Below, piece after piece: positions 1 to 19,925 of a DNA stretch of 64,000 nucleotides (the first letter of the stretch is position 1; every line of letters starts with the position of its first letter). The notes beneath the pieces are model-generated. The model worked only from the letters and a program-made list of their open reading frames with translations, was not told where the DNA came from and made no database searches. Source of the DNA: Gammaproteobacteria bacterium (lineage in GTDB: Bacteria; Pseudomonadota; Gammaproteobacteria; Eutrophobiales; Eutrophobiaceae); contig QKIY01000033.1 in assembly GCA_003250975.1 (NCBI GenBank), positions 14,086 through 78,085 of the forward strand, written 5' to 3'. Both the position numbers and the translations under genes were made by a program.

Positions 1-832
1 TAAGGTGGCTGTAATCGGCATGGGGATCATGGGTATAGCTACGGCTGATAATCTCGACAAGGAAGGCCTGCTTGTAGCAACCTGGAACCGTTCAGAAAAA
101 CCCGGCTTGCCGAAATTCGAGCCGAACATCCGGGAGGCTGTAAATAACGCTGACATAATATTAATCCTTGTTACCGATGATGAGGCTGTTTCCGATGTGC
201 TCGATCAGATAGAACCTGTGCTTACATCCGGACAAATTGTTATTCAGTGCAGCACCGTCAGCCCTGCCAGCAATATCTCATTTGATAAAAGAGTTACTTC
301 TACTGGTGCAGGATTCGTTGAGGCCTTGATAGGTGGCAGCAAGGTAGCTGCAATAGAAAGACAGATCATCTTTTACCTTGGCGGCAGGGACAAGGAGATC
401 CGGGCGGTCATGCCAGTACTGGATAGGATTTCAGCAAAATGTATTCATGTCGGAGAGGTGGGCAAGGCCAGTGCAGTGAAGCTTGCAATGAATCTTAACA
501 TTGCCATGCAGGTGGAGGCATTGAGTGAAAGCTTTGCCTATGCTGAACGCGCGGGCATCGATCCAGCAATTTTTTTCAACGTCCTCAGAAACAATACGGC
601 TGGAAATAAACTCAGTGAAGTAAAGGAACCCAAATTGAAAGAACATGATTTTTCTCCTCAATTTTCGGTCAAGAATATGCTCAAAGATATCAGGCTTGCT
701 CTGGCAACCGAGGCGACGGACAACGGACTGGCGCTGCTTTCTGCGACTGAGAAACTGTATGCCAGAGCAATGGAGTCTGGTTACGGCGATGAAGACATGA
801 TTGCCCTATATAAACTAATCAATAACGACTGA
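1..832 (+). CDS. NAD(P)-dependent 3-hydroxyisobutyrate / 2-hydroxy-3-oxopropionate reductase-like dehydrogenase (5' end may lie outside window)
   Basis: N-terminal Rossmann motif (K)VAVIGMGIMG and the overall HIBADH/GarR-like length and architecture. The in-frame codon before the reported GTG start is AAG, so the gene probably continues upstream. Confidence 0.7.
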   Translation, partial: KVAVIGMGIMGIATADNLDKEGLLVATWNRSEKPGLPKFEPNIREAVNNADIILILVTDDEAVSDVLDQIEPVLTSGQIVIQCSTVSPASNISFDKRVTSTGAGFVEALIGGSKVAAIERQIIFYLGGRDKEIRAVMPVLDRISAKCIHVGEVGKASAVKLAMNLNIAMQVEALSESFAYAERAGIDPAIFFNVLRNNTAGNKLSEVKEPKLKEHDFSPQFSVKNMLKDIRLALATEATDNGLALLSATEKLYARAMESGYGDEDMIALYKLINND

Positions 833-854
833 CGATAGGAAATATAATCCGCTC

Positions 855-1226
855 ATGGCAAAATTTTTCCTTTTGAGTGGTGCTCTTAATGCGCTGCTGG
901 CCATCATGCTCGGTGCCTTTGGCGCCCACGCACTCAGGGAACAACTTCAGGAACGAATGCTTGAAGTTTTCCATACTGCAAGCCAGTATCATTTTTACCA
1001 TGCTCTTGGCCTGATGATAATCGGGATGCTAGTCCTGCAATTACAACCTTCGCCCTGGTTCAAGTGGTCCGGTTGGTTGATGCTGGCCGGAATCTTGCTG
1101 TTTTCAGGGAGTCTTTACCTCCTGGCAGTCAGCCGGATTGGCTGGCTGGGTATTGTGACTCCCTTCGGAGGCACTGCCTTCATTCTGGCCTGGCTCTCGG
1201 CTTTTATCGGCCTGCTAAAAAATTAA
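855..1226 (+). CDS. DUF423 family small membrane protein
   Basis: 123 aa with 4 TM segments and the GAFGAH motif typical of DUF423 (YgdD-like). Confidence 0.6.
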   Translation: MAKFFLLSGALNALLAIMLGAFGAHALREQLQERMLEVFHTASQYHFYHALGLMIIGMLVLQLQPSPWFKWSGWLMLAGILLFSGSLYLLAVSRIGWLGIVTPFGGTAFILAWLSAFIGLLKN

Positions 1227-1249
1227 TAGTGAAAACGGGATTGAAATCG

Positions 1250-1576
1250 ATGAAATACCTTTTATTTTTATTCTGCCTTGTCTTTGCAACTGCCCATGCC
1301 GATACACGGATAGCAGAGGCCTGCCACAACCAGGCCAAGGCCTTCCTCTCGGCCTTGCAATCAGAAGTCTTCAGTGATATGAGCGAAACACAGTCGCAGA
1401 GAGTATTCACTCTGGCAATGACAACATGCGAACAGGAATTTTCCAGGGTCGAAAAGGCAGACCTGGACAATGGAGAACAGGATCGTTCCAATGACTGGTT
1501 TACAAATTATATCCTCAGGGGAGAACAGCCTGACAAGGCCGGTAATAAAAGACTCAAGCGGATGAACCGTCGTTAG
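1250..1576 (+). CDS. small secreted hypothetical protein
   Basis: Internal ATG gives MKYLLFLFCLVFATAHA, a clean signal peptide. The upstream part of the ORF-track reading frame overlaps the DUF423 gene and is probably not coding. Confidence 0.45.
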   Translation: MKYLLFLFCLVFATAHADTRIAEACHNQAKAFLSALQSEVFSDMSETQSQRVFTLAMTTCEQEFSRVEKADLDNGEQDRSNDWFTNYILRGEQPDKAGNKRLKRMNRR

Positions 1577-1974
1577 GCGGACCCAAGCCAGAGCAAAGAG
1601 ATCAACCACAGGACCAGCAGCCACAGTGCCAGGATAATCGAAACCCCGAGCACCCTTAGGCCAATGTCTTGCCCGTCCTTTGCTCCGTCCCGGTAATCAA
1701 TAATCACCTCTTCCGGTATCAGCCTGACGATCAAGGCAAGTGCTACGGGCACCAGGATGGCTTCATCCAGCAGTCCCAGTACCGGGATGAAATCAGGCAC
1801 CAGGTCAATGGGGCTGATAATATAGGCAAGCAGCATAAGCGTCAGGCACTTGATATACCAAGCTACCCGGGGATCGCGGATTGCCCGGTATAAAATATAA
1901 GCATTTGATTTAAATGCTATAATATTTTTTGTGAGTTTCATGTTCCCGGTGACCACTGTCTCCAATATTTTCAC
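1573..1974 (-). CDS. DUF1232 (YkvA-like) membrane protein
   Basis: Motif ISPIDLVPDFIPVLGLLDE, the hallmark of DUF1232, plus 2 TM segments. Confidence 0.65.
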   Translation of the reverse strand: MKILETVVTGNMKLTKNIIAFKSNAYILYRAIRDPRVAWYIKCLTLMLLAYIISPIDLVPDFIPVLGLLDEAILVPVALALIVRLIPEEVIIDYRDGAKDGQDIGLRVLGVSIILALWLLVLWLISLLWLGSA

Positions 1975-2043
1975 GACGACAATACATGAATAATCCGGAA
2001 CTCTTTACTAACCAGCTCAACTAGACAACAAGGCTTTTCAATC

Positions 2044-2805
2044 ATGGTTATAGATAATATACCGCTGTTCGCGGAGAGGCTCCGCAATGGAGAGATGCTC
2101 ATTGGCACACTGATCAGCCTGCCATCGCCGGAAGTCACCGAAATATTGTCAAAAACAGGTTTTGACTGGTTATTTATCGATGCAGAGCACGGCGCCTTCA
2201 ATCCACAAGAGGCGCAGGCGTTATTACAGGCCGCAGGTCAATGCCCTTGTGTGGTCAGGGTGCCCTCGGATGATGAAGTCTGGATCAAGAAGGCACTTGA
2301 TATCGGTGCAGCAGGCCTGATATTTCCACAGGTACACACGGCTGAGCAGGTCCGTAACATTGTGAACCGGTGTAAATATTCTCCCGAGGGCTCACGTGGT
2401 ATTGGTATAGGTAGGGCCCATAATTATGGCCTGAGTTTTGAAGAATATCTCGAGACCGCAAACCGGAACACAGCCATCATAATACAGGCTGAAAGCCGGC
2501 AGGCAGTGGAAAATATCGGGGAAATAACCGATGTTCCCGGAATCGATGCCATATTGATTGGTCCCAATGACTTGGCAGCCAGCCTGGGCAAGAGAGGAAA
2601 ACTGACAGACCCCGAAGTGGAATCCGCAATCGAACAGATATCACATACGTGTTTATCTAAAAATATTAAACTGGGTTTCTTCGGGACCAGTGCGGAATCG
2701 GTCAAGCCCTGTATGCAAAAAGGTTTTACACTGATAACACTGGGTGTCGATTCCCTGTTTTTAATCAAAGCAGCAAAAGAATCCCTGAGTATGCTACATG
2801 GCTAG
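2044..2805 (+). CDS. HpcH/HpaI-family 2-keto-3-deoxy-acid aldolase
   Basis: 253 aa with FIDAEHG and the conserved layout of the HpcH/HpaI / 2-dehydro-3-deoxyglucarate aldolase family. Confidence 0.7.
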   Translation: MVIDNIPLFAERLRNGEMLIGTLISLPSPEVTEILSKTGFDWLFIDAEHGAFNPQEAQALLQAAGQCPCVVRVPSDDEVWIKKALDIGAAGLIFPQVHTAEQVRNIVNRCKYSPEGSRGIGIGRAHNYGLSFEEYLETANRNTAIIIQAESRQAVENIGEITDVPGIDAILIGPNDLAASLGKRGKLTDPEVESAIEQISHTCLSKNIKLGFFGTSAESVKPCMQKGFTLITLGVDSLFLIKAAKESLSMLHG

Positions 2806-3160
2806 AAAAACATTCATGAGCCTTGGTACTATAAACACTATACTGAATACCGCGCCTCTCATAATCCAGGGGGCAACAAGGCTATTGAAGGCCATAAAGG
2901 AAAAAAACAGCATGGAATCGAAGGAAAATGATATTCCTGCTACTGTGGAGGGGATTAAAAACGAGCTGGAACGCGTCAACAAGCGGCTAGAAGATACATC
3001 GAATACGACCATTGAACAGATCAGGCTGATTGAAGAACTGGCAAAACAGAATGAACTCCTCGCAGAATCCCTTCAGAAGCTGAACAGGAAAAGCAACCTG
3101 ATTGCACTGATATCTATTATTGCCATTTTCTTCGTGCTGTTATATCTGTTTCTCGCATAA
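2798..3160 (+). CDS. small coiled-coil protein with C-terminal transmembrane anchor (hypothetical)
   Basis: 120 aa with a heptad-like charged middle region (ELERVNKRLEDT...LIEELAKQNELLAESLQKL) and a single C-terminal TM. It overlaps the upstream gene by 8 nt. Confidence 0.4.
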   Translation: MARKTFMSLGTINTILNTAPLIIQGATRLLKAIKEKNSMESKENDIPATVEGIKNELERVNKRLEDTSNTTIEQIRLIEELAKQNELLAESLQKLNRKSNLIALISIIAIFFVLLYLFLA

Positions 3161-3187
3161 ACAGATCCTGCTTGAGCTCTCTCTGCC

Positions 3188-3943
3188 ATGTATGAAATAT
3201 GCCCAAAATGCAACTATAAGCGCCAGGATTCCGATGATTGCAGCATGGATCAATGTCCTGCCTGTGGCATTCTGTTTTCCAAGTGGATGAAGCGACAATT
3301 CGGACAAGACAGCAGTCCGCTGCCTGCTCATCCAGGAAACGATACAAGCATCCTTGTCAGGTTAAAGGATGTCCTGTTATACGTTGATCCCGACACAGGG
3401 CCTGTCCGGTTTTACGGCAATCTGTGCATATATGTCTTTTTTCTGGCCTGGGGATGGCAATTCATAAAAATGGATTATTCCATTAACCCCTATGAGATAG
3501 CTGATTCTTTCATGCACAATATCAACCTTGTTTTTCATGAGGCGGGGCATGTTGTATTCAGGCCATTCGGCCGGTTTATGATGATACTTGGGGGCTCGTT
3601 GATGCAGCTTCTGGTACCTGCTGTAGTTTTGCTGAGCTTTATCTTTAAAAACAGGGATAATTTTGCAGCGTCAATCGGCCTCTGGTGGCTGGGGCAAAGC
3701 CTTGTAGACCTTGCTCCCTATATTGACGATGCGATGGAACAGAAACTCGTATTACTTGGAGGACGTACAGGTGCAGACTCACCGGGCAGTCATGACTGGA
3801 ATAATATATTGATAGAATTCAATGTGCTTGAAAGATACCATGAGTATGCAAGGTTCGCCGATTTACTAGGTACCGCAATCATTCTCCTGGCTCTTGCATG
3901 GGGCGCTGTTATCCTTGTCAAACAATATAAACATCAGTATTAA
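3188..3943 (+). CDS. membrane metalloprotease-like protein with N-terminal zinc ribbon (HExxH in TM segment)
   Basis: N-terminal CPKC...CPAC zinc ribbon. A membrane-embedded FHEAGHVV (HExxH) motif and a downstream LVDLAPYIDD resemble the S2P/M50-like intramembrane zincin arrangement. Confidence 0.5.
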   Translation: MYEICPKCNYKRQDSDDCSMDQCPACGILFSKWMKRQFGQDSSPLPAHPGNDTSILVRLKDVLLYVDPDTGPVRFYGNLCIYVFFLAWGWQFIKMDYSINPYEIADSFMHNINLVFHEAGHVVFRPFGRFMMILGGSLMQLLVPAVVLLSFIFKNRDNFAASIGLWWLGQSLVDLAPYIDDAMEQKLVLLGGRTGADSPGSHDWNNILIEFNVLERYHEYARFADLLGTAIILLALAWGAVILVKQYKHQY

Positions 3944-3965
3944 CAAATCCGGGTTGTGTACGAGT

Positions 3966-5408
3966 GTGACATACAGAACCGTTTATATATTATTTATTAC
4001 ATTTTTTTATATCACAGATATCTCTTCTGCTTATGCCTATAGTCCCGAGACAGAGCCGTCTCTTCCGGAAGAAATAACATCTTTATTCCAGAGGCACAAA
4101 ATTCCTCTTGATTCCATCAGTCTCTATATTATCGATCCTTTAAGCAAAGAGCCCCTGTTGCTGTTTAATGAAGATACACCACGTAATCCCGCCTCTACTA
4201 TCAAGTTACTTACAACGATGGCCGCACTGGAAATCCTTGGTCCTTCTTATGTCTGGCAAACTGATTTTTATATTGATGGTAAACTTGATGATGGCAGGCT
4301 TGATGGTGATCTTATACTAAAGGGTGGCGGTGATCCCTTTCTTTCAAAAGAGAACCTATGGCATATTCTATTCAGTCTCCAGGCGCGAGGCATCAGGCAT
4401 ATCGAGGGAGACCTTGTCATAGATGACAGCCTGTTTGAAGATGAATCAGGATCACCAGCTGATTTCGATAACAAGCCCTATCGAGTTTACAATATATTTC
4501 CTGATGCGGCCCTTGTGAATTTCAATGCCCAGGAATTTATCTTAATTCCAGATGCTGATAAGGTTCATATATACACGGATCCCCCGGCTGCCAATCTGCA
4601 CATTGATAACAAGGTTAAACCCGCCAAGGGCAATTGTTTTGCAAACAAAAAGCCCCTGATACTTCATATAACGCACCATGCAGATGAGACAGTGGCCAGA
4701 TTTTCAGGTGACTATCCGGTGGATTGTGGTGAAAAAAATATTATCCGTTCCGTGCTTCCACAGGATGAATATATATATGGGGTATTCAAGTCCATGTGGC
4801 AGCAACTGGGAGGCACATTATCAGGCTCTTACAGAAATGCCAGTCAGCAATTCTCAGGTGACCCCTTCTATTCGTGGCAATCCCTGCCATTGAGCGAGAT
4901 CATAAAAGATATCAATAAATACAGTAACAACGTCATGTCCCGCCAGTTACTGCTGACAATGGCAATGGAGTCCAGGGGTATACCGGGTAACAGGGATTCG
5001 GGTATAGAAGCAGTAAAAAACTGGCTCGAAAGCATCAATATACATGCGCCTGAATTGTTGATAGAAAATGGCTCAGGCCTTTCGCGCAAAAGCAGGATCA
5101 CGGCAAAACACCTTGGAAAACTGCTGGAGTATGCCTATCAAAGCCCCTTGCAACCAGAATTCATGGCCTCATTTCCCCTTGCAGGCAATGATGGAACCAT
5201 GCGCAAACGACTCAACGGTGACATGCCGGCTGGAAGCGCAAGGATTAAAACCGGCCTGCTTGACGATGTCAGAACTATGGCCGGTTATATTCGTAGCAGG
5301 AATGGCAGGGAATTTATAGTAATAGCTTTACAAAATTACCCGGGTATTCACAAACAGATCGGAACTGAAATCCAGGACGAGATTATCCACTGGCTCTTTA
5401 ACCAATAG
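3966..5408 (+). CDS. dacB: D-alanyl-D-alanine carboxypeptidase/endopeptidase (PBP4, peptidase S13)
   Basis: ASTIKLLTT (SxxK active site) and overall PBP4 similarity. The start is uncertain: the GTG at 3966 gives a plausible signal peptide (TYRTVYILFITFFYITDISSAYA), whereas the ORF-track start at 3894 overlaps the upstream gene. Confidence 0.8.
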   Translation: MTYRTVYILFITFFYITDISSAYAYSPETEPSLPEEITSLFQRHKIPLDSISLYIIDPLSKEPLLLFNEDTPRNPASTIKLLTTMAALEILGPSYVWQTDFYIDGKLDDGRLDGDLILKGGGDPFLSKENLWHILFSLQARGIRHIEGDLVIDDSLFEDESGSPADFDNKPYRVYNIFPDAALVNFNAQEFILIPDADKVHIYTDPPAANLHIDNKVKPAKGNCFANKKPLILHITHHADETVARFSGDYPVDCGEKNIIRSVLPQDEYIYGVFKSMWQQLGGTLSGSYRNASQQFSGDPFYSWQSLPLSEIIKDINKYSNNVMSRQLLLTMAMESRGIPGNRDSGIEAVKNWLESINIHAPELLIENGSGLSRKSRITAKHLGKLLEYAYQSPLQPEFMASFPLAGNDGTMRKRLNGDMPAGSARIKTGLLDDVRTMAGYIRSRNGREFIVIALQNYPGIHKQIGTEIQDEIIHWLFNQ

Positions 5409-5423
5409 TATTGTCAGCAGACA

Positions 5424-6188
5424 TCAGTTCTCATACCGGCCATGTGGATTCCCTTTATGCCGGTTTCCGTTTTCATTCTCCTTATCGCTATTATGTTTGT
5501 TATGCCTTTCATCAGGTTCTCTATTTGCCTGATGATCGTAATTTACATTACCATGGCTATTCCTGCCGTCCGGCTTCCCAGCCCTGTCATCTGACTTCAC
5601 ATGTCTATCATCCGGTCTTCCAGTCCTGTCATCTGACTTCACATGTCTATCATCCGGTCTTCCAGTCCTGTCATCTGACTTCACATGCCTGTCATCCGGT
5701 CTTCCAGTCCTGTCATCTGACTTCACATGCCTGTCATCCGGCTTCCCAGCCCTGTCATCCCGCTTCCCATGCCTGTCATCCGATCGGTTATTCTTGTACC
5801 CCTTTTTGTGATCTTCCCTTGATCTGTAATGTTTATCACGGGAATGATGACCCTCGACAAATTTTTTCGGGAGTTTCTTCTCGCTGTATTTCTTCCAGCC
5901 TTTGTCCAGGTCTCTGCTCCTGTACCAGTGATCATGATCATACCTGTAATAATGACCACCGAAATAATAATAATCAGGGAAACCGATAACAACATAGACT
6001 CCTAGATAAGAGTCATATACCAGATCATGGCCATGATGCTTGTGCCTATAACCGTGCGCCGGTGCATGCGGCGGGGGGCCAGCATCATGATCATGATAAT
6101 ATGCATGGTGATGATGAGGCACAATTTCACATCCTGTCAGCATTAAAGCGAACATCACAAGGCCGCAAATTACGTATATCTTCTTCAT
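5424..6188 (-). CDS. His-rich, highly charged repeat lipoprotein (hypothetical, possible periplasmic metal-binding protein)
   Basis: MKKIYVICGLVMFALMLTGC is a signal peptide with lipobox. An HHHH / HxH-rich N-terminal region is followed by roughly 4.5 tandem copies of the 14-aa unit DDRHVKSDDRTGRP. Confidence 0.6.
   Translation of the reverse strand: MKKIYVICGLVMFALMLTGCEIVPHHHHAYYHDHDAGPPPHAPAHGYRHKHHGHDLVYDSYLGVYVVIGFPDYYYFGGHYYRYDHDHWYRSRDLDKGWKKYSEKKLPKKFVEGHHSRDKHYRSREDHKKGYKNNRSDDRHGKRDDRAGKPDDRHVKSDDRTGRPDDRHVKSDDRTGRPDDRHVKSDDRTGRPDDRHVKSDDRAGKPDGRNSHGNVNYDHQANREPDERHNKHNSDKENENGNRHKGNPHGRYEN
5563..5790. repeat. 42-bp tandem direct repeat (about 4.5 copies, with a 21-bp sub-periodicity) inside the lipoprotein CDS
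   Basis: ctgtcatctgacttcacatgtctatcatccggtcttccagtc is repeated head-to-tail, seen directly in the sequence. The repeat is in-frame (42 = 14 codons). Confidence 0.9.
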
Positions 6189-6317
6189 CACGATCAACAC
6201 CTCGTATTTAATTAATGGACTATTGATAATCCTATCATCCGATTATCCGGTGATAGCAAATTAGACAGGGAGACTGCGAAAAGTATCAATGCATGAAGTG
6301 TATTTTAGTGAGTCTTG

Positions 6318-7856
6318 TCACATTTCAGGCCAGTCCATGACCTTTTTATCCATTAACAGATTTAGTGTCAGGCGTATCCCGAATCCGGTTGTATCTGTAG
6401 GAACATGCGCAAGCCCGCCTTTGCGGTTACTGCTCGATAAATCCACATGAATCCACGGGACATTGTTTTTCACGAACCTCTGCAGAAAACGTGAGGCAAG
6501 AATGTGATCCATGCCCGATTCACGTGAGCATTGTTTTATATCCGCAATATTGCTCTCCAATAACTTGTCATAGTCCTCATCCATAGGAAACGGCCAGACA
6601 CGTTCCCCGCTATCCTTGCCGGCCTCTATCAATACCGGGTTAAGTGCTTCCCTGTTAGTAAAAATGCCACTGTAGGCTGTTCCTAGAGAGTAAATACAGG
6701 CTCCGGTCAAGGTTGCATAGTCAATGATTAGGGACGGTTTTTCCTTCGAGGCCAGCACCAGGGTATCGCACAGGACCATGCGGCCCTCGGCATCGGTATG
6801 GACAACTTCGATGGTCGTGCCGTCACATGCCGTTACCACATCATTCTGTTTATAGGCCTTTGGCCCGATATGATTCATGGCAAGAGCAAGCCAGCACTCT
6901 ACTGGGTAATTCACCTTGAGGCGGCTCAGGGCCAGTAATGTCCCCAGTGCAACGGCACTGCCCTGCATATCTTCATGCATGCCAAACATATAATTGGCAG
7001 GCTTCAGGTTGGTCCCTCCCGTGTCATAGCAGATCCCCTTACCCACCAGGCTGAGCTTTCTTTTAGCCGATGATCTGTTTTGAGGCCGGTATATCAATCG
7101 GACAATGCCGGCATCGGCAACGGGGCTGCCCTGGGCTACAGCGATAAAGGCGCCCGCTTTTTTCTTTTTAAGCAACTCAAGATTGTAAAACTGCAATTGC
7201 CAATCATTGACTTTGGCCAATTTTTTCACTTCTTTCAGATAGTCAGTGGGCGTCAATGAATTAGGAGGAAGCATACTGAGACTGCGCGCCAAAGCATTTC
7301 CCTCCGCTTCCGCAAAACTACGTTTGAATCCATGTGCCGTTTTGACCCCAAAAATATTTATCTTGTTCAGTACTGGCCCTTTTCTGTCTTTGCCGGACTT
7401 GAATTCAGGCATTTCGGCGACTGCTGCGAGCATCGCGGATATCACAGCTTCTGCCATGCGCTCAGCAGCATCCATATTGTAACCATATAGAATTACACCA
7501 AGCTCCTGTCCGTGAAAATCCCTATGTTGTTTTATCAGATCAGCCGCAATACCCAGTAATTCGAAGCTGCTGATTTCCGGATCGATGCAGGCGAATGCAA
7601 GATGCGTGATATTTCTATTTGGCAGGTCACAGGAGAACACGGTTTTGTTGGAAAATTTTTTATTCAGCTGCTTTCTGCGTAAATCTATAAATTCACCGTA
7701 AGGTAAGTTTTTGATGGACGGTAATGTAATGTTACCCGGCACCACTATGATCCAGTTTGCTGTTTTATCGACTCGTGCTTTATCGGGTAACTCAGGATGC
7801 TGCTGTAATTTTATTTTCATCAAATTGGTCCGGAATTTAATAATATTGCCCTGCAT
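6318..7856 (-). CDS. pepA: M17 family leucyl aminopeptidase
   Basis: NTDAEGR-type signature (HTDAEGRMVLCDTL) and GKGICYDTGG. Confidence 0.8.
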   Translation of the reverse strand: MQGNIIKFRTNLMKIKLQQHPELPDKARVDKTANWIIVVPGNITLPSIKNLPYGEFIDLRRKQLNKKFSNKTVFSCDLPNRNITHLAFACIDPEISSFELLGIAADLIKQHRDFHGQELGVILYGYNMDAAERMAEAVISAMLAAVAEMPEFKSGKDRKGPVLNKINIFGVKTAHGFKRSFAEAEGNALARSLSMLPPNSLTPTDYLKEVKKLAKVNDWQLQFYNLELLKKKKAGAFIAVAQGSPVADAGIVRLIYRPQNRSSAKRKLSLVGKGICYDTGGTNLKPANYMFGMHEDMQGSAVALGTLLALSRLKVNYPVECWLALAMNHIGPKAYKQNDVVTACDGTTIEVVHTDAEGRMVLCDTLVLASKEKPSLIIDYATLTGACIYSLGTAYSGIFTNREALNPVLIEAGKDSGERVWPFPMDEDYDKLLESNIADIKQCSRESGMDHILASRFLQRFVKNNVPWIHVDLSSSNRKGGLAHVPTDTTGFGIRLTLNLLMDKKVMDWPEM

Positions 7857-7984
7857 TATAAATGATAACGGCCTTCAGGCGTGAGCGGGCAACAATACAT
7901 TTTATAAAATAATCTCTAAACTGATATTATGAGTAAAAATAAATCCAGAACGGATTGAAGAATCTAAAATCCTATGGTAAGTCC
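7857..7984. promoter_or_regulatory. divergent intergenic region between the aminopeptidase gene and aceE (probable promoters)
   Basis: AT-rich 128-bp gap between two divergently oriented genes. No specific -10/-35 hexamers assigned. Confidence 0.3.
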
Positions 7985-10642
7985 ATGACCGATTCCGGAA
8001 AAGACATCGACCCGCAGGAAACCCAGGAATGGCTTGAGGCGCTGGAATCCATTCTTGAACGTGAAGGGGTGGATCGCGCGCATTACCTGCTTGAGCAGTT
8101 GATTGCCAAGGCGCGCAAGTCGGGCGCTTATCTGCCCTATAGTGCGAACACGGCCTACCTCAATACTATCCCCCCTTCCAAGGAGGAACGTTCGCCTGGC
8201 GACCCAGGTATCGAGTGGCGAATCCGTTCCCTAGTACGCTGGAATGCCATGGCCATGGTCGTCAAGGCCAACCGAAAGAGCAGCGAGCTCGGTGGACACA
8301 TTGCCAGCTTTGCCTCATCTGCCACGCTTTATGATGTCGGTTTCAATCATTTCTTTCGAGCCCCGACCAAAGAAAGAGGGGGCGATCTGTTGTTTGTCCA
8401 GGGACATTCGGCTCCTGGCATCTATGCCCGCGCCTACCTGACAGGCAGAATTAGCGATGAACAGATCCACAATTTCCGCCAGGAAGTCGACGGTAATGGT
8501 CTTTCCTCTTACCCACATCCTTGGTTGATGCCCGATTATTGGCAATTTCCCACCGTGTCCATGGGATTGGGTCCGTTAATGGCCATCTACCAGGCCCAGT
8601 TCATGCGCTACCTTGAGCACCGGGGCCTGTTGAATACGGAAGGCAGGAAGGTCTGGGCCTTCATCGGCGATGGTGAGATGGACGAACCAGAATCGACCGG
8701 GGGGATCGACCTGGCCGCACGTGAAGGACTGGATAACCTTATCTTTGTCATTAACTGCAACTTGCAACGACTGGATGGCCCAGTGCGGGGTAACAGCAAA
8801 ATCATCCAGGAGCTCGAGGGCCTGTTCCGTGGAGCCGGCTGGAATGTGATCAAGGTCATCTGGGGTTCATACTGGGACCCATTACTGGCGCGTGACACAC
8901 ACGGGCTGCTGCAAAAGCGCATGGAAGAGTGCGTTGACGGCGAATACCAGGCCTTCAAGGCAAATGACGGCAAGTTTGTTCGCGAATACTTTTTTGGTAA
9001 GTACCCGGAACTCAAGGCCATGGTGGCCAATATGTCAGACGAGGATATCTGGCGGCTCAATCGCGGCGGTCATGATCCACACAAGGTCTATGCTGCCTAT
9101 GCCGCGGCCATGAAACACAAGGGACAACCCACCGTTATTCTGGCGAAAACTGTCAAGGGTTACGGCATGGGCGAGGCCGGTGAAGGACAGAACATTACCC
9201 ACCAGCAGAAAAAAATGGGTGAAGCGGCGTTGAAGGCCTTTCGTGATCGTTTCAATATCCCGATCTCGGACAATGAGATTGCCGATGCACCGTTTTACAG
9301 GCCACCGGAGGATAGCCCTGAAATCACCTACCTGAAAGAACGTAGAAAGGCCCTGGGGGGATACTTTTTTGGCAATTTCAAGAAAGCAGCGCCATTACAA
9401 ATCCCTTCCATCGATATCCACAAAAAATTGCTGGAGGGCACCGGCGATCGCGAGATATCGACCACCATGGCCTTTGTCAGGATCCTCGGCGCGCTGACCA
9501 AGGATAAAAATATCGGCAAACATATCGTACCTATCGTCCCGGACGAGGCCCGCACCTTTGGTATGGAGGGTATGTTCCGGCAACTGGGGATCTACTCCTC
9601 TGTCGGTCAGCTCTATGAACCGGTGGATCACGACCAGGTCATGTATTACCGGGAAGATAAAAAAGGCCAGATCCTAGAGGAAGGTATCAATGAAGCGGGC
9701 GCCTATTCATCATGGATGGCCGCCGCAACGGCCTACCGGAATCACGGGATCTTTATGGTCCCGTTCTATATCTTTTATTCCATGTTCGGCTTTCAGCGCA
9801 TCGGTGATCTCGCCTGGGCCTCGGGTGATATGCGTTCAAGGGGTTTTTTACTAGGGGGAACCTCGGGACGTACTACCCTGGCAGGTGAAGGACTGCAACA
9901 CCAGGATGGCCACAGTCACCTGACAGCTTCCACCATCCCCAATTGTGTTTCCTATGACCCCACCTTTGCCTACGAACTGGTGGTGATTATTCAAAACGGC
10001 ATGCAGCGGATGTATGTCAATAATGAAGATGTCTTTTACTACATTACCGTGATGAATGAGAACTATGTCCATCCTGCTCTGCCGGAAGGTGTGGAAGATG
10101 GCATTGTCCGCGGTATGTACCTGTTCCAGAAAACCCCAAAAAAGAAAAAATTACATGTCAGGCTGCTGGGCTCAGGCACTATACTGCGTGAAGTCATTGC
10201 GGCTGCAGCCTTGCTTGAAGAGGATTTTTCCGTTTCCTCGGAGATATGGAGTGTCACCAGTTTTACTGAATTACGCCGAGGCGGGCTGGACGTGCAGCGC
10301 TGGAACATGCTGCACCCTGAAGAGAAACCTCGTACAAGCTATGTCGGTGAATGTCTACAGGGCGCCTGTCCCACGGTTGCCGCTACGGATTATATGAAGA
10401 CTTATGCTGACCAGATCCGGGGCTTTTTCGAAGGCCCCTATATTGTACTTGGCACGGATGGATATGGTCGCAGTGATACGCGTGAACAACTACGCAAGTT
10501 CTTTGAGATCAACCGAAATTATATTGCGCTTGCCGCACTGAAGGCCCTGGCAGATACCGGTGCCATTACCTCATCCACAATCAGCGAGGCGATCAAAAAA
10601 TATGAGATTGATCCCGACAAGCCCAACCCGGTAACAGTGTAA
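7985..10642 (+). CDS. aceE: pyruvate dehydrogenase E1 component (homodimeric type)
   Basis: N-terminal DIDPQETQEWLEALESILEREGVDRAHYLLEQL, about 885 aa, AceE-like throughout. The start could alternatively be the TTG at 7955. Confidence 0.9.
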   Translation: MTDSGKDIDPQETQEWLEALESILEREGVDRAHYLLEQLIAKARKSGAYLPYSANTAYLNTIPPSKEERSPGDPGIEWRIRSLVRWNAMAMVVKANRKSSELGGHIASFASSATLYDVGFNHFFRAPTKERGGDLLFVQGHSAPGIYARAYLTGRISDEQIHNFRQEVDGNGLSSYPHPWLMPDYWQFPTVSMGLGPLMAIYQAQFMRYLEHRGLLNTEGRKVWAFIGDGEMDEPESTGGIDLAAREGLDNLIFVINCNLQRLDGPVRGNSKIIQELEGLFRGAGWNVIKVIWGSYWDPLLARDTHGLLQKRMEECVDGEYQAFKANDGKFVREYFFGKYPELKAMVANMSDEDIWRLNRGGHDPHKVYAAYAAAMKHKGQPTVILAKTVKGYGMGEAGEGQNITHQQKKMGEAALKAFRDRFNIPISDNEIADAPFYRPPEDSPEITYLKERRKALGGYFFGNFKKAAPLQIPSIDIHKKLLEGTGDREISTTMAFVRILGALTKDKNIGKHIVPIVPDEARTFGMEGMFRQLGIYSSVGQLYEPVDHDQVMYYREDKKGQILEEGINEAGAYSSWMAAATAYRNHGIFMVPFYIFYSMFGFQRIGDLAWASGDMRSRGFLLGGTSGRTTLAGEGLQHQDGHSHLTASTIPNCVSYDPTFAYELVVIIQNGMQRMYVNNEDVFYYITVMNENYVHPALPEGVEDGIVRGMYLFQKTPKKKKLHVRLLGSGTILREVIAAAALLEEDFSVSSEIWSVTSFTELRRGGLDVQRWNMLHPEEKPRTSYVGECLQGACPTVAATDYMKTYADQIRGFFEGPYIVLGTDGYGRSDTREQLRKFFEINRNYIALAALKALADTGAITSSTISEAIKKYEIDPDKPNPVTV

Positions 10643-10651
10643 TTTTAGGCC

Positions 10652-11974
10652 GTGAGCAAACCGACTGAAATAACCATCCCGGATATTGGTGATTTCAAAG
10701 ATGTCGAGATCATCGACATTGCAATCACACCCGGCGATCAGATCCGAAAGGAGGATACCCTGCTTACACTGGAAAGTGACAAGGCCAGCATGGACATACC
10801 CTCACCCCTTACAGGCAAAGTCAGCAAGGTCCTGGTCAAGACAGGTGATAAAGTTTCAAAGGGGACGCCGGTTGCGCTTATCGAGGAAACAGGTAAGGAC
10901 AAGCCGGACATGACTACTCCATCCACCAATGTTGCTAAAGATGAAGACCTCGCCGGCAATGAAAAAACTGAACAAGGAACTACACCTGAAACTGCTGCGC
11001 CCGCTATCTATACACCACGCCCTGCGCCGGCGACACCTCAAGGTGCCCAGACAGTCGGCTCCAGCCGCTCGGCGAAGGCACATGCAAGTCCATCGGTTCG
11101 CCAGTTCGCACGTGAACTGGGTGTCGACCTGGGATTGGTCTACGGAACCGGCCCAAAGGGCAGGATCCTCATGGAGGACATTAAGGCCTTTACCAAGAGC
11201 ATGCTCTCAGGCGAAAAACTCGCCGGAAAAGGCGCGTTCTCCCTGCCTGAATCCTCCCCGGTGGACTTCTCAAAATTCGGCAAGACAGAGCTCCGGCCAC
11301 TCGGGCGTCTGAAGCGTCTGGGTGGGCAACACCTGCATAGGAGCTGGATCACTATTCCCCACGTAACCCAGTTTGATGAGGCGGACATTACGGACCTTGA
11401 AGAGTTTCGCCAATCCAAGCTGGACGATGCAAACAGCCAAGGTATCAAACTCACCCTGATTCCCTTCCTGGTCAAGGCCGTCGTGGATGCCTTACAACAG
11501 TTTCCGGAATTTAATGCCTCCCTTAGTCATGACGGTGAAAGCATAATCTTGAAAAAATATTTTCATATCGGTATTGCCGTAAATACTGATGACGGCTTGG
11601 TGGTGCCGGTCATAAAAGACGCAGACAAGAAAGGGCTGTTCGATATTGCCCGGGAACTCGGTGAACTTGCTGAAAAGGCCCGGGAACAGAAATTGAAGAA
11701 GGACGATTTGGAGGGCGGGTGTTTTACCATTACCAGTCTGGGCGGGCTGGGGGGGACGTCCTTCACGCCCATCATCAATGCCCCGGAAGTGGCGATCCTT
11801 GGTGTATCCCGCGCCCAGATGAAACCGGTTTACATGGAAGGCGAACTGGTCGCCAGGCTGACATTACCATTTGCCCTCTCCTATGATCATCGTGTCATCG
11901 ATGGAGTTGCAGGCGCCAGTTTCACCCGTTTTCTGGGCAGCGTGCTGTCCGATATCCGACAAATACTCTTGTAA
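10652..11974 (+). CDS. aceF: dihydrolipoamide acetyltransferase E2 (single lipoyl domain)
   Basis: Lipoyl domain with [14 protein letters not shown], an Ala/Pro-rich linker, and the catalytic DHRVIDG motif. Confidence 0.9.
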
Positions 11975-11980
11975 CCCATC

Positions 11981-13705
11981 ATGCCTGAAACCAGGGAAAT
12001 CCTCGTCCCCGATATTGGTGATTTTGAAGCGGTAGAGGTAATCGACGTGCTGGTCGCCAAGGGCGATCATATTAATAAGGAAGATCCGCTGATCACACTC
12101 GAGAGTGACAAGGCAAGCATGGACATCCCTTCTCCTGCCTCGGGCACCGTTAAGACCTTGCACATCAAGGCGGGTGACAAGGTCTCTAAAGGCGCGCCGA
12201 TACTGGTGCTAGAAACCTACGGCGAAGACGATACTGTGGAAACCCGAGCGGCTTCTACTATGACAGAGGCCACGCCGCAATCACCGTCAACAGAAGCGGA
12301 CCTGCATGCCGAGATCCTGGTCCTCGGAGCGGGACCGGGTGGCTACACGGCAGCATTCCGTGCTGCGGACCTCGGTAAAAAGACCATCCTCGTGGAACGC
12401 TATCCTGCACTTGGAGGTGTCTGCCTGAATGTCGGCTGCATTCCCTCCAAGGCCCTGTTACATGTGGCCCGGGTGATTTCGGAGATAGGTGACCTCAAGG
12501 CGCAGGGCATCGATCTCGGAACACCCAAAGCCGATACCCGTGCGATCCGCCGCTGGACCGAGAATGTGATTGGCAAACTGACCGGTGGCCTAGCGCGGAT
12601 GGCGAAACAACGCAAGATCACCGTTGTGCAGGGTGTAGGCAAATTCACTTCACCTCATATGATCCGGGTGACGGACGCAAACCGCCAGACAACAACCATA
12701 TCTTTTGAACATGCCATCATAGCGGCTGGTTCCCAGTCTGCCATAATCCCAGGGCTGCCCACCGACCCGCGTATCCTCGATTCAACGTCCGCCCTGCAAC
12801 TCGAGAGTGTCCCCGGACGGCTACTGGTGATTGGCGGCGGGATCATTGGCCTGGAGATGGCAGCCGTCTACCGCGCACTGGGCAGCAGGATCACCGTCGT
12901 TGAAATGCTAGACTCCCTGATCAGCGACTGCGACAGGGACATTGTCCGGCCCCTGCAGAAGCGGATCGCAAAACACTACGACAACATCTTTCTCAAGACC
13001 TCGGTAACCGGCATCAAGCCCGGGAAAAACGGACTCGAGGTCACTTTCGATGGCAAGGATGCACCGGTGAGCGACCGTTTTGACGCGGTCCTCCTGGCCA
13101 TAGGGCGTATTCCCAATGGCGGGCTGATCGATGCCGAACTAGCCGGGGTCGTCGTCGATGAAAAAGGCTTCATCCCGGTAAACGATCAACAACGAACCAA
13201 TGTGCCCCATATCTATGCCATCGGTGACATCACGGGTAATCCAATGCTCGCCCACAAGGCCAGCCACGAGGGCAAATTGGCGGCCGAGGTAATTTCCGGG
13301 CTGAAACGGGGTTTCGACAACCGTGTGATCCCCTCGGTCGCCTATACCGACCCGGAGATTGCCTGGGTGGGGGTCATAGAAGACGTGGCAAAGGCACGGG
13401 GTATTGATTATGGCAAGGGAGTCTTTCCCTGGGCCGCCAGCGGGCGATCTCTCTCACTGGGGCGTGATGAAGGGATGACCAAGATCCTCTTCGACAATGA
13501 CAGCCACCGGATCATCGGCGCGGCGATAGTCGGCCCCAATGCCGGAGATCTGATCGCAGAATGCGCACTCGCCATCGAGATGGGTGCTGATGCAAGGGAT
13601 CTCGGCCTGACCATCCATCCCCACCCGACACTGTCCGAGACGGTTGGCATGGCAGCAGAGGCCTTTGAGGGGACGATCACAGACCTTTACCTACCGAAGA
13701 AATGA
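11981..13705 (+). CDS. lpdA: dihydrolipoamide dehydrogenase E3 with N-terminal lipoyl domain
   Basis: N-terminal lipoyl domain ([15 protein letters not shown]) fused to an FAD/NAD oxidoreductase carrying GAGPGGY...GGVCLNVGCIPSK. Confidence 0.9.
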   Translation: MPETREILVPDIGDFEAVEVIDVLVAKGDHINKEDPLITLESDKASMDIPSPASGTVKTLHIKAGDKVSKGAPILVLETYGEDDTVETRAASTMTEATPQSPSTEADLHAEILVLGAGPGGYTAAFRAADLGKKTILVERYPALGGVCLNVGCIPSKALLHVARVISEIGDLKAQGIDLGTPKADTRAIRRWTENVIGKLTGGLARMAKQRKITVVQGVGKFTSPHMIRVTDANRQTTTISFEHAIIAAGSQSAIIPGLPTDPRILDSTSALQLESVPGRLLVIGGGIIGLEMAAVYRALGSRITVVEMLDSLISDCDRDIVRPLQKRIAKHYDNIFLKTSVTGIKPGKNGLEVTFDGKDAPVSDRFDAVLLAIGRIPNGGLIDAELAGVVVDEKGFIPVNDQQRTNVPHIYAIGDITGNPMLAHKASHEGKLAAEVISGLKRGFDNRVIPSVAYTDPEIAWVGVIEDVAKARGIDYGKGVFPWAASGRSLSLGRDEGMTKILFDNDSHRIIGAAIVGPNAGDLIAECALAIEMGADARDLGLTIHPHPTLSETVGMAAEAFEGTITDLYLPKK

Positions 13706-14175
13706 CAGTTGATAAACCAGTAAAGGCACGCTTCTCGATTAACCTGATAGTAAATGCCAGAAACGAGCTCTTGTTGTTGAAACGCAGGCAAACTGCGGAA
13801 CTGGGCCCCGGTCAATGGGGGTTCCCCGCCGGCCATATCCAGGACGTTGAATCTGCTGAAGAATGCTCGGCAAGAGAACTGGCTGAAGAGATTGGTGAGC
13901 AAACTCGCCTGCAACTCCTGCGAACTCTGGGTCCAGTGCGTGACACATTTTATGGAGGTATCTACGATGTCTACCTGTTTCACTACCGCTGGCTAGAGGG
14001 GGAGGTCCGGTTAAACCCGGAACATACCGACTATGCATGGGTCGCCCCGGATGATTATGCCGGGTACGATGTCATGGACGGGATGGATGAAGATATCGCC
14101 CTGTTAAATCTCTGGCCTGTCGGTTATCTTGACCCGGAAAAATTGCCGCCTGCCTTGCGAAAGAATAATAATTAA
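13702..14175 (+). CDS. NUDIX hydrolase
   Basis: Nudix box GHIQDVESAEECSARELAEEIGE. The start overlaps the lpdA stop (ATGA). Confidence 0.75.
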   Translation: MTVDKPVKARFSINLIVNARNELLLLKRRQTAELGPGQWGFPAGHIQDVESAEECSARELAEEIGEQTRLQLLRTLGPVRDTFYGGIYDVYLFHYRWLEGEVRLNPEHTDYAWVAPDDYAGYDVMDGMDEDIALLNLWPVGYLDPEKLPPALRKNNN

Positions 14176-14957
14176 TGCCTGTCACGCTCCACTACAATAC
14201 CTTTGGCCAGGGCCCGGCCGTCATGATACTGCATGGCCTGTTTGGCTCGTCACGTAACTGGCAGGGCATGGCCAAGCGCCTGGCGGACCGCTACCAGGTC
14301 ATTACCGTTGACCTGCGTAATCATGGGCAGTCCGCGAGTATTGTGACAATGAGTTATCCTGAAATGGCGGCGGATGTCATTCAACTTATCCAGGACTTGT
14401 CACTGGCCGGGGTGCGCCTAGTTGGCCACAGCATGGGCGGCAAAACCGCTATGCAGGCCGCACTTACAGCACCCGGGATAATTGAGAGGCTGGTAGTACT
14501 GGACACCGCACCCGTGTCCTATGCCCACCGTTACGGCAAGATCTTCTTTGCCCTGCGCAACCTGCCACTGAAAGAGATCAGGAACCGAGAAGAGGCCGAG
14601 GCGATGCTAGATGAACAAATTAATGATCTGTTTCTCACGCGATTTCTGCTGCAAAATCTGGTCAGAAATGAAGACCGATTTGAATGGCGCATAAACATCA
14701 AGATAATCGAAGACAATATTGAAACGATCAGTGGCTTCCCTGAAGCGACGCCGGGCATCCACTATGACGGCCCCGCCCTTTTCCTAGGTGGCGCCAATTC
14801 CCATTTCATCCAAGCACAACACTATCCGGATATTCTGTCCCGATTTCCAAATGCTACGATCAGACTGCTAGAAGGGACCGGTCACATGCTGCATGTAGAA
14901 CAGTCGCTTGAGGTTGAGAACAGCCTCAGGGCGTTCCTCGAAACCCAGGCCCTCTGA
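14175..14957 (+). CDS. alpha/beta-fold hydrolase (esterase YbfF-like)
   Basis: HGLFGS oxyanion region and the GHSMGG nucleophile elbow. The start overlaps the NUDIX stop (TAATG). Confidence 0.7.
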   Translation: MPVTLHYNTFGQGPAVMILHGLFGSSRNWQGMAKRLADRYQVITVDLRNHGQSASIVTMSYPEMAADVIQLIQDLSLAGVRLVGHSMGGKTAMQAALTAPGIIERLVVLDTAPVSYAHRYGKIFFALRNLPLKEIRNREEAEAMLDEQINDLFLTRFLLQNLVRNEDRFEWRINIKIIEDNIETISGFPEATPGIHYDGPALFLGGANSHFIQAQHYPDILSRFPNATIRLLEGTGHMLHVEQSLEVENSLRAFLETQAL

Positions 14958-15031
14958 TTTTTTCATCTCACTCTTCACGCAATTACTCTGTGCCGTTACA
15001 CTAGCACCCCTTTAACCTTAACCGGGATTAT

Positions 15032-16249
15032 TTGATGTCCGAGAAAAAGATCAGCAAAGTCGTACTCGCCTACTCCGGCGGACTGGATACCTCCGTTATC
15101 CTAGTCTGGCTCAGGGATTACTATGACTGTGAAGTCGTGACCTTTACCGCCGATATCGGCCAAGGCGAGGAACTGGAGCCGGCACGCCAGAAGGCGCAAA
15201 AGCTGGGGGTAAAGGAAATATTCATTGAGGACCTGAAGGAAGAGTTTGTCCGGGACTTTGTTTTTCCCATGTTTCGCGCCAACACCCTCTATGAAGGCGA
15301 ATACCTGCTGGGCACATCGATCGCCCGGCCGCTGATTGCAAAACAGCTGGTCGAGATAGCAAGGGAGACCGGGGCCGACGCCGTCGCTCATGGCGCCACG
15401 GGCAAGGGGAATGACCAGGTCCGGTTCGAACTCGGGGCCTATGCCCTGAACCCGGATATCAGTGTCATCGCCCCCTGGCGCGAATGGGACCTGAACTCAC
15501 GTGAAAAGCTGCTGGCCTATGCCGAACAACACGATATCCCCATAGAGGCGAAGCGCAAAGGGGGATCGCCCTATTCCATGGACGCCAATCTATTGCACAT
15601 CTCCTATGAAGGCGGCGTACTGGAAGATCCGTGGTCCGAACCGGAAGACAGCATGTGGCGCTGGACGGTCTCACCTGAAGCAGCACCCGATAAGAGCGAG
15701 AACATCGAACTCACGTTTGAAAAGGGTGATATTACGGCCATCAATGGCAAGCCCATGACACCGGCGACCGTGCTCGCCACCCTGAACGGTATTGGCGGCA
15801 AACACGGGATTGGCCGTACGGACATCGTCGAGAACCGCTATGTCGGCATGAAGTCCCGCGGCTGCTATGAGACTCCCGGCGGCACCATCATGCTCAAGGC
15901 CCACCGTGCGATTGAATCGATCACCCTAGACCGTGAATTGACCCATCTAAAGGACGAACTCATGCCACGTTACGCCAGCCTGATCTATAACGGCTACTGG
16001 TGGAGCCCGGAGCGCCGGGCCCTGCAGACCCTCATCGATCAGACCCAGGAACGGGTCAATGGAATCGTCCGCCTGCAACTCTATAAGGGCAATGTGATCG
16101 TTAAGGGACGTAAGTCAGATACCGACAGCCTGTTTGATGCCACCATCGCCACGTTTGAGGATGATGCGGGCAGCTATAACCAGAAAGATGCGGAGGGATT
16201 TATCAAGCTCAATGCCCTGCGCCTGCGGATCCAGAACTGGAATAAATAA
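15032..16249 (+). CDS. argG: argininosuccinate synthase
   Basis: [15 protein letters not shown]-loop, about 400 aa, ArgG-like throughout. Confidence 0.9.
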
Positions 16250-16263
16250 CCCTGCCTGTTTTT

Positions 16264-17496: not shown

Positions 17497-17546
17497 GGCC
17501 TGGGCGTCTTACCCCCGGTATCAATAGCTGGCCTGTGCGAGCTCCC

Positions 17547-18158
17547 TCAGGCGGTACTGCTCCTGAATCGCCTGGCCAGCCAGTAATCGAAACCCAGATA
17601 CCTGCCACCGCCGCTGAAGAACAACACCAGCAGCATGAAGAAATAGGTCGCGGTAAATTCGATACCATTTTTTAAGATGGTGATCGTTCCCGCCTCTGTC
17701 AGCCAGTCATAATTACCGTGCTCTTCCAGGATCTGGTTGGCTAGTTCCTTCCTGGTAATAGCCTCATCTATCTTTTCCTTTTTCCATTCCCATGGGACCA
17801 TTAATTCCTTCTCGGGTAATACATGCCAGCCATTATCCCAGTGTGCCGTCACTGCGGCCACGACCATGGTAAACATCAGGGGCAACGCAAACCAGCGCAC
17901 GGCCAGGCCAAGGAGGAGACAGCAACCGCCTATGAATTCAATATAACCGGCCAAATAGGCCATGATCGTTGGCGCCGGTATACTGAGGGAAGCAAACCAC
18001 CACCCGATGCTTTCAACATTCGACAGCTTGTTGGCACCTGCAAGTATGAAGATCGGTGCAAGATAGATCCGTAATGCCAGTGGGCCCAGGAAATCCAGTG
18101 CCCTGGTTTTATCAAGCAGATCGGTGGCACGGTTACTGACTTTAATTAAAGCTGACAT
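17547..18158 (-). CDS. DoxX-family membrane protein, 4th gene of the DUF2282/DUF692/DUF2063 cluster
   Basis: DoxX-like TM pattern (LALRIYLAPIFILAGANKL). An AAGGAG RBS sits 6 nt upstream of the internal ATG (MSALIK...), so the longer ORF-track start is probably wrong. Confidence 0.65.
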   Translation of the reverse strand: MSALIKVSNRATDLLDKTRALDFLGPLALRIYLAPIFILAGANKLSNVESIGWWFASLSIPAPTIMAYLAGYIEFIGGCCLLLGLAVRWFALPLMFTMVVAAVTAHWDNGWHVLPEKELMVPWEWKKEKIDEAITRKELANQILEEHGNYDWLTEAGTITILKNGIEFTATYFFMLLVLFFSGGGRYLGFDYWLARRFRSSTA

Positions 18159-18269
18159 AGGTATCTCCTTCATTCGTGATGCGCTGTTGCACCTGCCCTG
18201 AAAGAATATTGTTGTTAAATTTACCTGCCTGTCACCGGATAGCATGCACGCGAATGTTTTTTTACTTGT

Positions 18270-19896: not shown

Positions 19897-19925
19897 GGTT
19901 TAATGACAAGTCAGGTGAGTCCAAT

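Follow-up and report, generated by a model that had tools for sequence, protein, structure and literature searches.

Histidine-rich segments are found in several bacterial proteins that handle metals: the His-rich loop of ZnuA, the N-terminus of ZinT and the Hpn-type storage proteins all serve as comparators here. Another periplasmic protein, Asr from Escherichia coli, is a Lys/His-rich, disordered acid-shock protein. CopI, a His-rich periplasmic metal-handling protein, exhibits a His-rich domain at its N-terminus (PMC13308877). We have analysed a His-rich lipoprotein gene containing an in-frame array of 42-bp tandem repeats, which is located on the minus strand of a 64,000-nucleotide stretch of gammaproteobacterial DNA (assembly GCA_003250975.1, contig QKIY01000033.1, positions 14,086 to 78,085; this whole stretch is termed the window, and coordinates are counted from its first nucleotide). 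The encoded protein resembles proteins of the ZnuA, ZinT, CopI and Hpn type in its export to the envelope and in the presence of His and Asp clusters in flexible parts beside a folded domain, and by analogy a low-affinity capture of Cu, Zn or Ni that feeds a defined site would be plausible. In contrast to these proteins, it exhibits no kinship to them in sequence or fold, possesses a new candidate site, GPPPHAPAHGYRHK, is predicted to be lipid-anchored and has no metal transporter or regulator adjoining its gene. We class the lipoprotein with the small, exported, His-rich envelope proteins in the broad sense; within these it belongs to a domain family that has not been described and contains a candidate coding variable-number tandem repeat (VNTR).

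Several further proteins were compared and rejected as relatives. RcnB (YohN, PF11776), which functions in Ni/Co homeostasis in E. coli, likewise combines a basic/His-rich low-complexity part with a small beta domain in an envelope protein of small size, and a short LPPGLAKK-like string is common to RcnB and some members of the family; however, hhalign of our 111-member family alignment against RcnB (NC_000913.3) gave a probability of 1.0%, no Pfam match was obtained and the window gene has no adjoining rcnA-like exporter. E. coli YaaX (DUF2502) resembles the family as a small, secreted, W/Y/H/G/R-rich protein that contains a run of prolines and has a His-rich tail, but hhalign aligned only residues 1–19 of YaaX, which constitute its signal peptide (probability 17.6%), and YaaX lacks both the lipobox and the invariant residues of the family. 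DUF6515 (PF20125), an uncharacterised bacterial family, is the only Pfam model touched by any family member: one of the 111 members matched (E = 9e-5) and the window protein gave no match at E ≤ 1, which we judged insufficient for membership; papers mentioning DUF6515 give no function. The analogy to Asr applies to the tails only, as Asr has no folded domain, lipid anchor or conserved motif and no homology to it was detected.

The lipoprotein and its family

The gene and its product comprise the following features (residue numbers refer to the 254-residue product; pLDDT, the predicted local distance difference test score from AlphaFold2, AF2):

5424–6188, minus strand: lipoprotein coding sequence, 254 residues plus stop, ATG at 6188; supported by the list of open reading frames (ORFs), homologs, the ratio of non-synonymous to synonymous substitution rates (dN/dS) and AF2
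6198–6203, minus strand: Shine-Dalgarno-like GAGGTG, 9 nt before the ATG
6129–6188, minus strand: signal peptide and lipobox L17-T18-G19-C20, with Cys20 the would-be lipidated first residue of the mature protein
6081–6128, minus strand: His/Asp-rich tether, residues 21–36 (EIVPHHHHAYYHDHDA), 6 His in 16 residues
6036–6080, minus strand: near-invariant motif G37-P-P-P-H41-A-P-A-H45-G-Y-R-H49-K-H51, from column frequencies
5844–6035, minus strand: beta-rich domain, residues 52–115, pLDDT 93–97, with the invariant Y65, W88, W98 and P107
5427–5843, minus strand: charged disordered tail, residues 116–254, 50% charged, net charge +0.04 per residue
5571–5780, minus strand: five 42-bp units (U1–U5) forming ten DDRxxxx heptads, residues 137–206, from Tandem Repeats Finder (TRF) and comparison of the units
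5613–5654, minus strand: unit U4, 42 bp, missing from the near-identical contig L084
5411–5989, plus strand: opposite-strand ORF of 192 residues, a shadow of the low-complexity gene that was rejected as a gene

The minus-strand ORF is a real gene; its product, a putatively lipid-anchored protein of the envelope, belongs to a widespread, unannotated family. We assign the coding function to this frame because the homologs, a dN/dS of 0.19 between the orthologs from the two closest genomes (L001 and L002), the silent differences between repeat units and the confident AF2 fold are all found there. The initial annotation, made from the sequence of the locus alone, had proposed a genuine lipoprotein-type gene on this strand with an LTGC lipobox followed by His clusters: homologs, lipobox and fold bear out the first point, and the clusters HHHHAYYHDHD, HKHHGHD and HYYRYDHDHWY are indeed all present in the product. 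It had also named expression of the His/Cys/Ser/Pro-rich ORF on the opposite strand as evidence that would overturn its proposal. That this ORF is expressed instead, or that the region is non-coding repeat DNA, now seems extremely improbable: although its 192 codons are uninterrupted, the differences between repeat units that are silent in the minus frame change residues in this one (HACHP versus HVYHP), homologs, conserved domain, lipobox and high-confidence fold all lie in the minus frame, and the ortholog in L001 has no antisense ORF of at least 100 residues.

The minus-strand ORF can be extended to a GTG at 6200 (5424–6200, 258 residues), which adds 4 residues relative to the ATG at 6188. 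Judged from the sequence, the ATG is the likelier start, because it is preceded at a distance of 9 nt by the GAGGTG and because GAGG and ATG are kept in both orthologs. Scans for promoters and terminators returned no more matches than shuffled sequence. The gene is probably monocistronic.

The N-terminus of the product, MKKIYVICGLVMFALMLTGC, consists of MKK, the segment IYVICGLVMFALM and L-T-G-C20. The n-region is positively charged, the h-region is hydrophobic and the lipobox agrees with the pattern [LVI][ASTVI][GAS]C, so that the signal conforms at the level of sequence to the definition of bacterial lipoproteins as putative Lgt/LspA substrates. Of the 111 aligned family members, 98% have Cys20 and 99% have Ser, Gly or Ala at position −1, and a lipobox-like pattern can be recognised in 195 of 246 family proteins. 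The residue at position +2, Glu in the window protein, differs among family members (S, R, A, V, N and others), for which reason it does not allow the inner or the outer membrane to be inferred as the destination. In composition, the mature protein is dominated by Asp (14.9%), His (12.8%), Arg (11.5%) and Lys (9.4%). The tether is His-rich in the orthologs from L001 and L002 too; across the family, tethers average 9.3% His (at least 20% in 21 of 195) and tails 7.6%, which corresponds to an approximately fourfold enrichment of His in both.

Relatives were obtained for residues ~1–115 only, and the family proteins are mostly ~140 residues long. A word-indexed search returned 127 homologs with E-values down to 4e-44, and a profile search of 1.84 billion representatives returned 1,104 clusters (at 50% identity) at E ≤ 1e-3, spread over many Gram-negative phyla, with 607 of these at E ≤ 1e-10; some of the proteins contain two or three copies of the domain. 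In contigs sampled at one genome per species, nearly all of them metagenome-assembled genomes, we located 108 loci in Gammaproteobacteria (Methylophagaceae/Piscirickettsiaceae), Myxococcota, Planctomycetota, Desulfobacterota, Nitrospirales, Krumholzibacteriota, Latescibacterota and others; a tblastn search of plasmids for the gene gave no match. The only name attached to family members is "hypothetical protein". For the lipoprotein itself, Pfam returned no family at E ≤ 1 and NCBIfam a single match, in which the signal-peptide region scored 12.7 bits with EexN (cutoff 33), while a sequence-profile search of the PDB returned no match at E ≤ 10. Pfam searches with all 111 aligned members produced stray weak matches only, the same searches with ten long multi-domain members identified no domain and no known fused domain, and a literature search with the motif strings found no paper. 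The earlier statement that no annotation-level homolog comes to mind thus holds for annotated proteins (Pfam, NCBIfam, PDB sequences and literature), but homologs as such are numerous.

The hallmark of the family is a motif with the consensus GPPPHAPAHGYRHK, usually followed by H51. In the alignment of 111 members from many phyla, P38, P39, H41, A42, P43, A44, H45, G46, Y47 and R48 are conserved at 100%, G37 and K50 at 99%, H49 at 95%, P40 at 94% and H51 at 64%; Y65, W88, W98 and P107 are the other invariant residues. The window protein carries every one of the invariant residues, both within and outside the motif, and by its sequence can be assigned to this unannotated GPPPHAPAHGYRHK family, defined here by these residues in a domain of ~80 residues that follows a lipobox. 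As each domain of the tandem-domain proteins possesses its own copy of the motif, the motif is part of the domain and does not belong to lipoprotein sorting.

In the AF2 model, residues 51–110 are predicted with a pLDDT of 93–97. Seven short strands between residues 48 and 101 are followed by a helix starting at residue 108, giving a beta domain of ~65 residues; the motif reaches a pLDDT of only about 57–66 and the tail of about 44–65, with no secondary structure past residue 126. H49 and H51, two residues apart in the first predicted strand (residues 48–51), would point to the same face. Foldseek searches of the model against the PDB and BFVD gave nothing below E = 0.18, hence no match at E < 0.001, and the top matches were scattered beta-propeller blades and phage spikes with template modelling scores below 0.2. 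The model of a tandem-domain member (P0002) repeats the strand order in both domains, at a predicted template modelling score of 0.43, with the motif below a pLDDT of 50 and no confident packing of the domains.

The 42-bp array and the charged tail

The array is the strongest tandem repeat of the 64-kb window: TRF reports positions 5562–5782 with a period of 42, 5.3 copies, 91% matches and a score of 326, together with a sub-period of 21 (10.5 copies, 67% matches), and the longest exact repeat within the gene is 63 nt, compared to 12 nt or less in 200 shuffles. U1 encodes DDRHGKR-DDRAGKP; U2 and U3 are the same DNA and encode DDRHVKS-DDRTGRP; U4 encodes the peptide of U2 and U3 with two synonymous changes (GAC>GAT, AGG>AGA); U5 encodes DDRHVKS-DDRAGKP and is followed, after the array, by a degenerate heptad, DGRNSHG. 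The repeats had initially been described as perfect 42-bp repeats with an internal 21-bp periodicity, encoding DDRHVKSDDRTGRP about 4.5 times. The in-frame 42-bp array and its 21-bp sub-period are confirmed, but only U2 and U3 are identical among the five units and the exact peptide occurs 3 times. The repeats proper are 59% charged, with a net charge of +0.01 per residue and 1 His in 14 residues: the tail is a well-mixed polyampholyte. Tails in the family are very diverse, with a median of 24 residues, and mostly rich in Lys, Gly and Arg (K 25%, G 15%, R 9%, median net charge +7); the window tail is among the longest.

The closest genomes, L001 and L002 (56–61% identity), retain the gene order of the window, in which aceE, an M17 aminopeptidase gene and the lipoprotein gene are followed by a convergent gene for PBP4. 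Their lipoproteins comprise 153 residues without the array, with ~100 fewer residues in the tail, and all 15 members of the sister cluster (at 90% identity) are exactly 153 residues long, a form seen on more than 100 contigs. Because these orthologs lack the array and no protein in a database of 5.8 billion clusters covers more than 54% of the query, the repeat tail is, as judged by these comparisons, a recent invention specific to the window lineage. It is unlikely to be a conserved functional part, given its absence from the syntenic orthologs and the great variability of tails in the family. With 1 His in 14 residues, balanced charge and no counterpart in the orthologs, the array is more likely to be a polyampholyte module that sets spacer length than a metal store.

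An exact match to the AceE protein of the window led to a 35.7-kb contig (L084) from JGI metagenome sample 3300027987, which is 99.85% identical to window positions 1–18642 (18.6 kb). Its lipoprotein has 240 residues, the gene being 100% identical save for the absence of U4, and TRF counts 4.3 copies there as opposed to 5.3 in the window. Two alleles, with 4 and 5 units, are thus documented. Neither a search of JGI metagenome contigs for the exact repeat DNA and close relatives nor exact-protein look-ups of both alleles (254 and 240 residues) gave further examples: the former revealed no additional allele and the latter no match. The k-mer-based Logan assembly of SRR7216773, which derives from the same organism, breaks at both sides of the array: one of its contigs (L085 and L086; window positions about 5570–5740) ends inside U2 and the other at the U4/U5 side.

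The comparison of repeat numbers that had been suggested at the outset hence yields a difference of one unit, which fits a real coding length polymorphism, subject to the possibility of assembler collapse discussed below. If the difference is real, the locus would resemble coding VNTRs of bacterial envelope and surface proteins, whose near-identical units likewise lie within one gene and vary in copy number between close genomes. The suggestion of a contingency-like, length-variable region stands as a candidate with respect to length; however, classical contingency loci have units of 1–8 bp that shift the frame or the promoter spacing, while the unit in the window is 42 bp and modulates length only. 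The array is not an on/off switch, because a unit of 14 codons keeps the frame and the 4-unit allele encodes an intact protein of 240 residues. Whatever the function of the protein, the forms with 153, 240 and 254 residues exemplify how a disordered tail can be built and resized by in-frame tandem duplication. The array is also an assembly hazard, and copy numbers taken from short-read assemblies warrant caution.

Tandem peptide repeats of independent origin also occur elsewhere in the family, either in tails or in linkers between domains (P0101/P0009, P0246, P0125, P0084 and L077 5905–6501). They include KVVVVTPKPKKA, which occurs ~7 times in P0101, a unit of ~20 residues (DRDGxRYKDNGTRYEPRSEH), HRRESRREHRRAD units and DDDGKGKGK units. 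It would seem that tails in this family have repeatedly grown by duplication.

Possible functions of the lipoprotein

Since genomic context and promoter are uninformative, the functional argument rests on the protein. The spacing of H41, H45 and H49 four residues apart, the frequent H51, the unvarying Pro, Ala and Gly residues and the His-rich tether make a His-based divalent-metal site on a lipid-anchored periplasmic module the most economical reading of this sequence, although we put it forward tentatively and at somewhat less than even chances. In such a module, H41 and H45 would be placed on a proline-stiffened loop, and the first beta strand would present H49, usually together with H51, on one face; the resulting ligand site would bind Cu, Zn or Ni as a divalent transition metal in the periplasm. 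An auxiliary role in low-affinity capture would fall to the His/Asp-rich tether, and the lipoprotein would buffer metal or hand it over at the membrane surface. The charge-balanced repeat tail would be a hydrated polyampholyte spacer or bristle as opposed to a conserved binding part; slippage or recombination among the 42-bp units would resize it in 14-residue steps without ever disturbing the frame. Of the metal buffering or storage that the initial annotation had proposed, the H41/H45/H49 motif and the His/Asp tether keep the metal part plausible, but there is no such support for the repeat tail as a store, and context and promoter add none.

If a metal site is indeed present, this would provide a first functional hypothesis and a defined three-His site for a family of more than 1,000 clusters. 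The members are mostly from uncultured sediment and marine bacteria, for which metal speciation is a major constraint, and a new metal module would aid the interpretation of their genomes. In its most far-reaching form, which we consider rather unlikely, the proposal would be that the GPPPHAPAHGYRHK motif and the beta domain constitute an unrecognised fold with a transition-metal, possibly heme, site, and thereby a new class of metal buffers or chaperones, lipid-anchored and periplasmic, whose tails are retuned by tandem duplication, in the window lineage as a 42-bp VNTR between co-existing strains. Such a class would have a wide distribution among Gram-negative bacteria of marine and sediment habitats (Gammaproteobacteria, Desulfobacterota, Planctomycetota, Myxococcota, Nitrospirota and others), and duplication within the tail would tune its reach or capacity. 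Should metal binding be refuted, a well-delineated new domain with a coding VNTR would be left, of value for annotation and of no surprise.

A number of observations weigh against a metal site. AF2 leaves the invariant motif at low confidence, so that no site geometry is predicted, and neither the PDB profile search, Foldseek nor hhalign against RcnB and YaaX revealed similarity in fold or sequence to known metal-binding proteins. Outside the motif, His is not abundant in most family members, whose tails are Lys/Gly-rich and polycationic, and an invariant motif of Pro, His, Tyr and Arg could equally serve as a peptide for docking to a conserved partner in the envelope or for binding an anionic ligand. 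The genomic neighbourhood adds nothing in its favour: clustering of the neighbours over 80 loci identified lineage-specific housekeeping genes only (the largest cluster covers 12 loci of one lineage), such as those for MscS, GloB and PyrD in Methylophagaceae, for T2SS-F, PgsA and PdxJ in Planctomycetota and for a beta-propeller protein in a few lineages, and in these 80 loci no neighbour, metal-related or otherwise, is conserved across phyla. Upstream of the lipoprotein gene, no Fur or Zur box was found above chance (best Fur match 11/19), and phylogenetic footprinting revealed nothing conserved except the ribosome-binding site. The co-regulation with metal-responsive regulators that had been proposed for checking thus gave no metal signal, either upstream or in the neighbourhood. 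With regard to the VNTR, the difference between 4 and 5 units could be due to assembler collapse, because both assemblies are from short reads and the alleles differ only in k-mers of at least 65 nt.

A different and possible, if doubtful, explanation is an envelope scaffold or polyanion-binding lipoprotein, in which domain and motif dock on a conserved part of the envelope, for example peptidoglycan, a lipid head group, lipopolysaccharide or a universal periplasmic machine (with GPPPHAPAHGYRHKH as the docking-motif peptide), the His residues are structural or pH-dependent and the charged or basic disordered tail binds polyanions or fills space. The polycationic family tails (with the composition given above) agree with this, as do the invariant or near-invariant R48, K50, R82, D59, Y47, Y65, W88 and W98, which are typical of surfaces for carbohydrates, anions or proline-containing peptides, the predicted flexibility of the motif, which resembles that of a short linear docking motif, and the absence of a metal context from neighbourhood and promoter. 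On the other hand, a set of three invariant His residues at regular intervals points more typically to the ligation of a metal or heme, the charge-neutral repeats of the window protein have not kept a polycation function, no similarity to known peptidoglycan- or lipid-binding folds was found (Pfam, Foldseek) and no conserved partner gene lies nearby.

Other explanations place the activity in the low-complexity parts. In a disorder-based protection of the periplasm against stress, be it as an Asr-like acid/pH buffer, by preventing aggregation or in a hydrophilin-like manner, the lipid anchor would hold the protein at the membrane; disorder is predicted for over half of the mature protein, whose 12.8% His would provide buffering around pH 6, and charged residues make up 50% of the tail. 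This we regard as unlikely, in that the family conserves a folded domain and a strict motif instead of a disordered composition, its tails range from K/G-rich and D/R-rich to V/T/P/K repeats, which argues against one physicochemical activity, and a stress-regulon context was not found. Even less probable, in our estimation, is a surface-exposed variable antigen or receptor that escapes phages, predators or grazers through changes in the repeat number of its tail. A difference of one unit at 99.85% genome identity, with the rest of the gene 100% identical, and the independent repeat expansions of other members would be in keeping with it, yet evidence for surface exposure is lacking, all changes are in frame and hence without on/off switching, only two alleles are documented, with assembler collapse possible, and the sister lineage is fixed at 153 residues in 15 of 15 cluster members.

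Metal-related neighbours and other genes of the window

The sole metal-related neighbour of the family is a ferritin-like gene (PF00210, E = 5e-42), located downstream of the family gene on the same strand in four Desulfobacterales loci only (including L037, L046 and L056), that is, in one lineage; in L037 and L046, a gene for a class I methyltransferase precedes the family gene.

The window also contains a complete copper-metallophore operon of the HvfA/bufferin type, a class of ribosomally synthesised and post-translationally modified peptides that has been described previously (PMC11626156, PMC11252979, PMC12452194). The operon lies on the minus strand at 17547–20201, 14 kb from the lipoprotein gene and unlinked to it:

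19926–20201, minus strand: HvfA precursor of 91 residues, with a signal peptide and EGKCGEKEET repeats; above cutoff for NCBIfam KCGExKCG_twice
19957–20059, minus strand: 30-bp tandem repeat (3.4 copies, 97% matches) encoding the precursor repeats
19033–19896, minus strand: HvfB, an MNIO maturase, 441.7 bits against a cutoff of 360; Pfam MbnB_TglH_ChrH, E = 3e-103
18270–19040, minus strand: HvfC, 295.9 bits against a cutoff of 142; DUF2063 and NGO1945_C
17547–18245, minus strand: DoxX, downstream of the HvfA precursor

At 1064–1576 on the plus strand, a 170-residue ORF gave no Pfam match; the gene calls of contig L084 at this position are a DUF423 protein and a 108-residue protein, which makes it doubtful that the 170-residue ORF is the actual gene. 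Positions 3188–3943 of the plus strand, immediately before the PBP4 gene (dacB), encode a protein of 251 residues that is syntenic with dacB in all three genomes (orthologs at 8125–8883 in L001 and 8243–9001 in L002). Pfam and NCBIfam returned no match for it; it exhibits an N-terminal, zinc-ribbon-like CPKC...CPxCG pair, several hydrophobic segments and an HEAGH sequence of the HExxH type, and on the strength of these features may be an unannotated, membrane metalloprotease-like protein.

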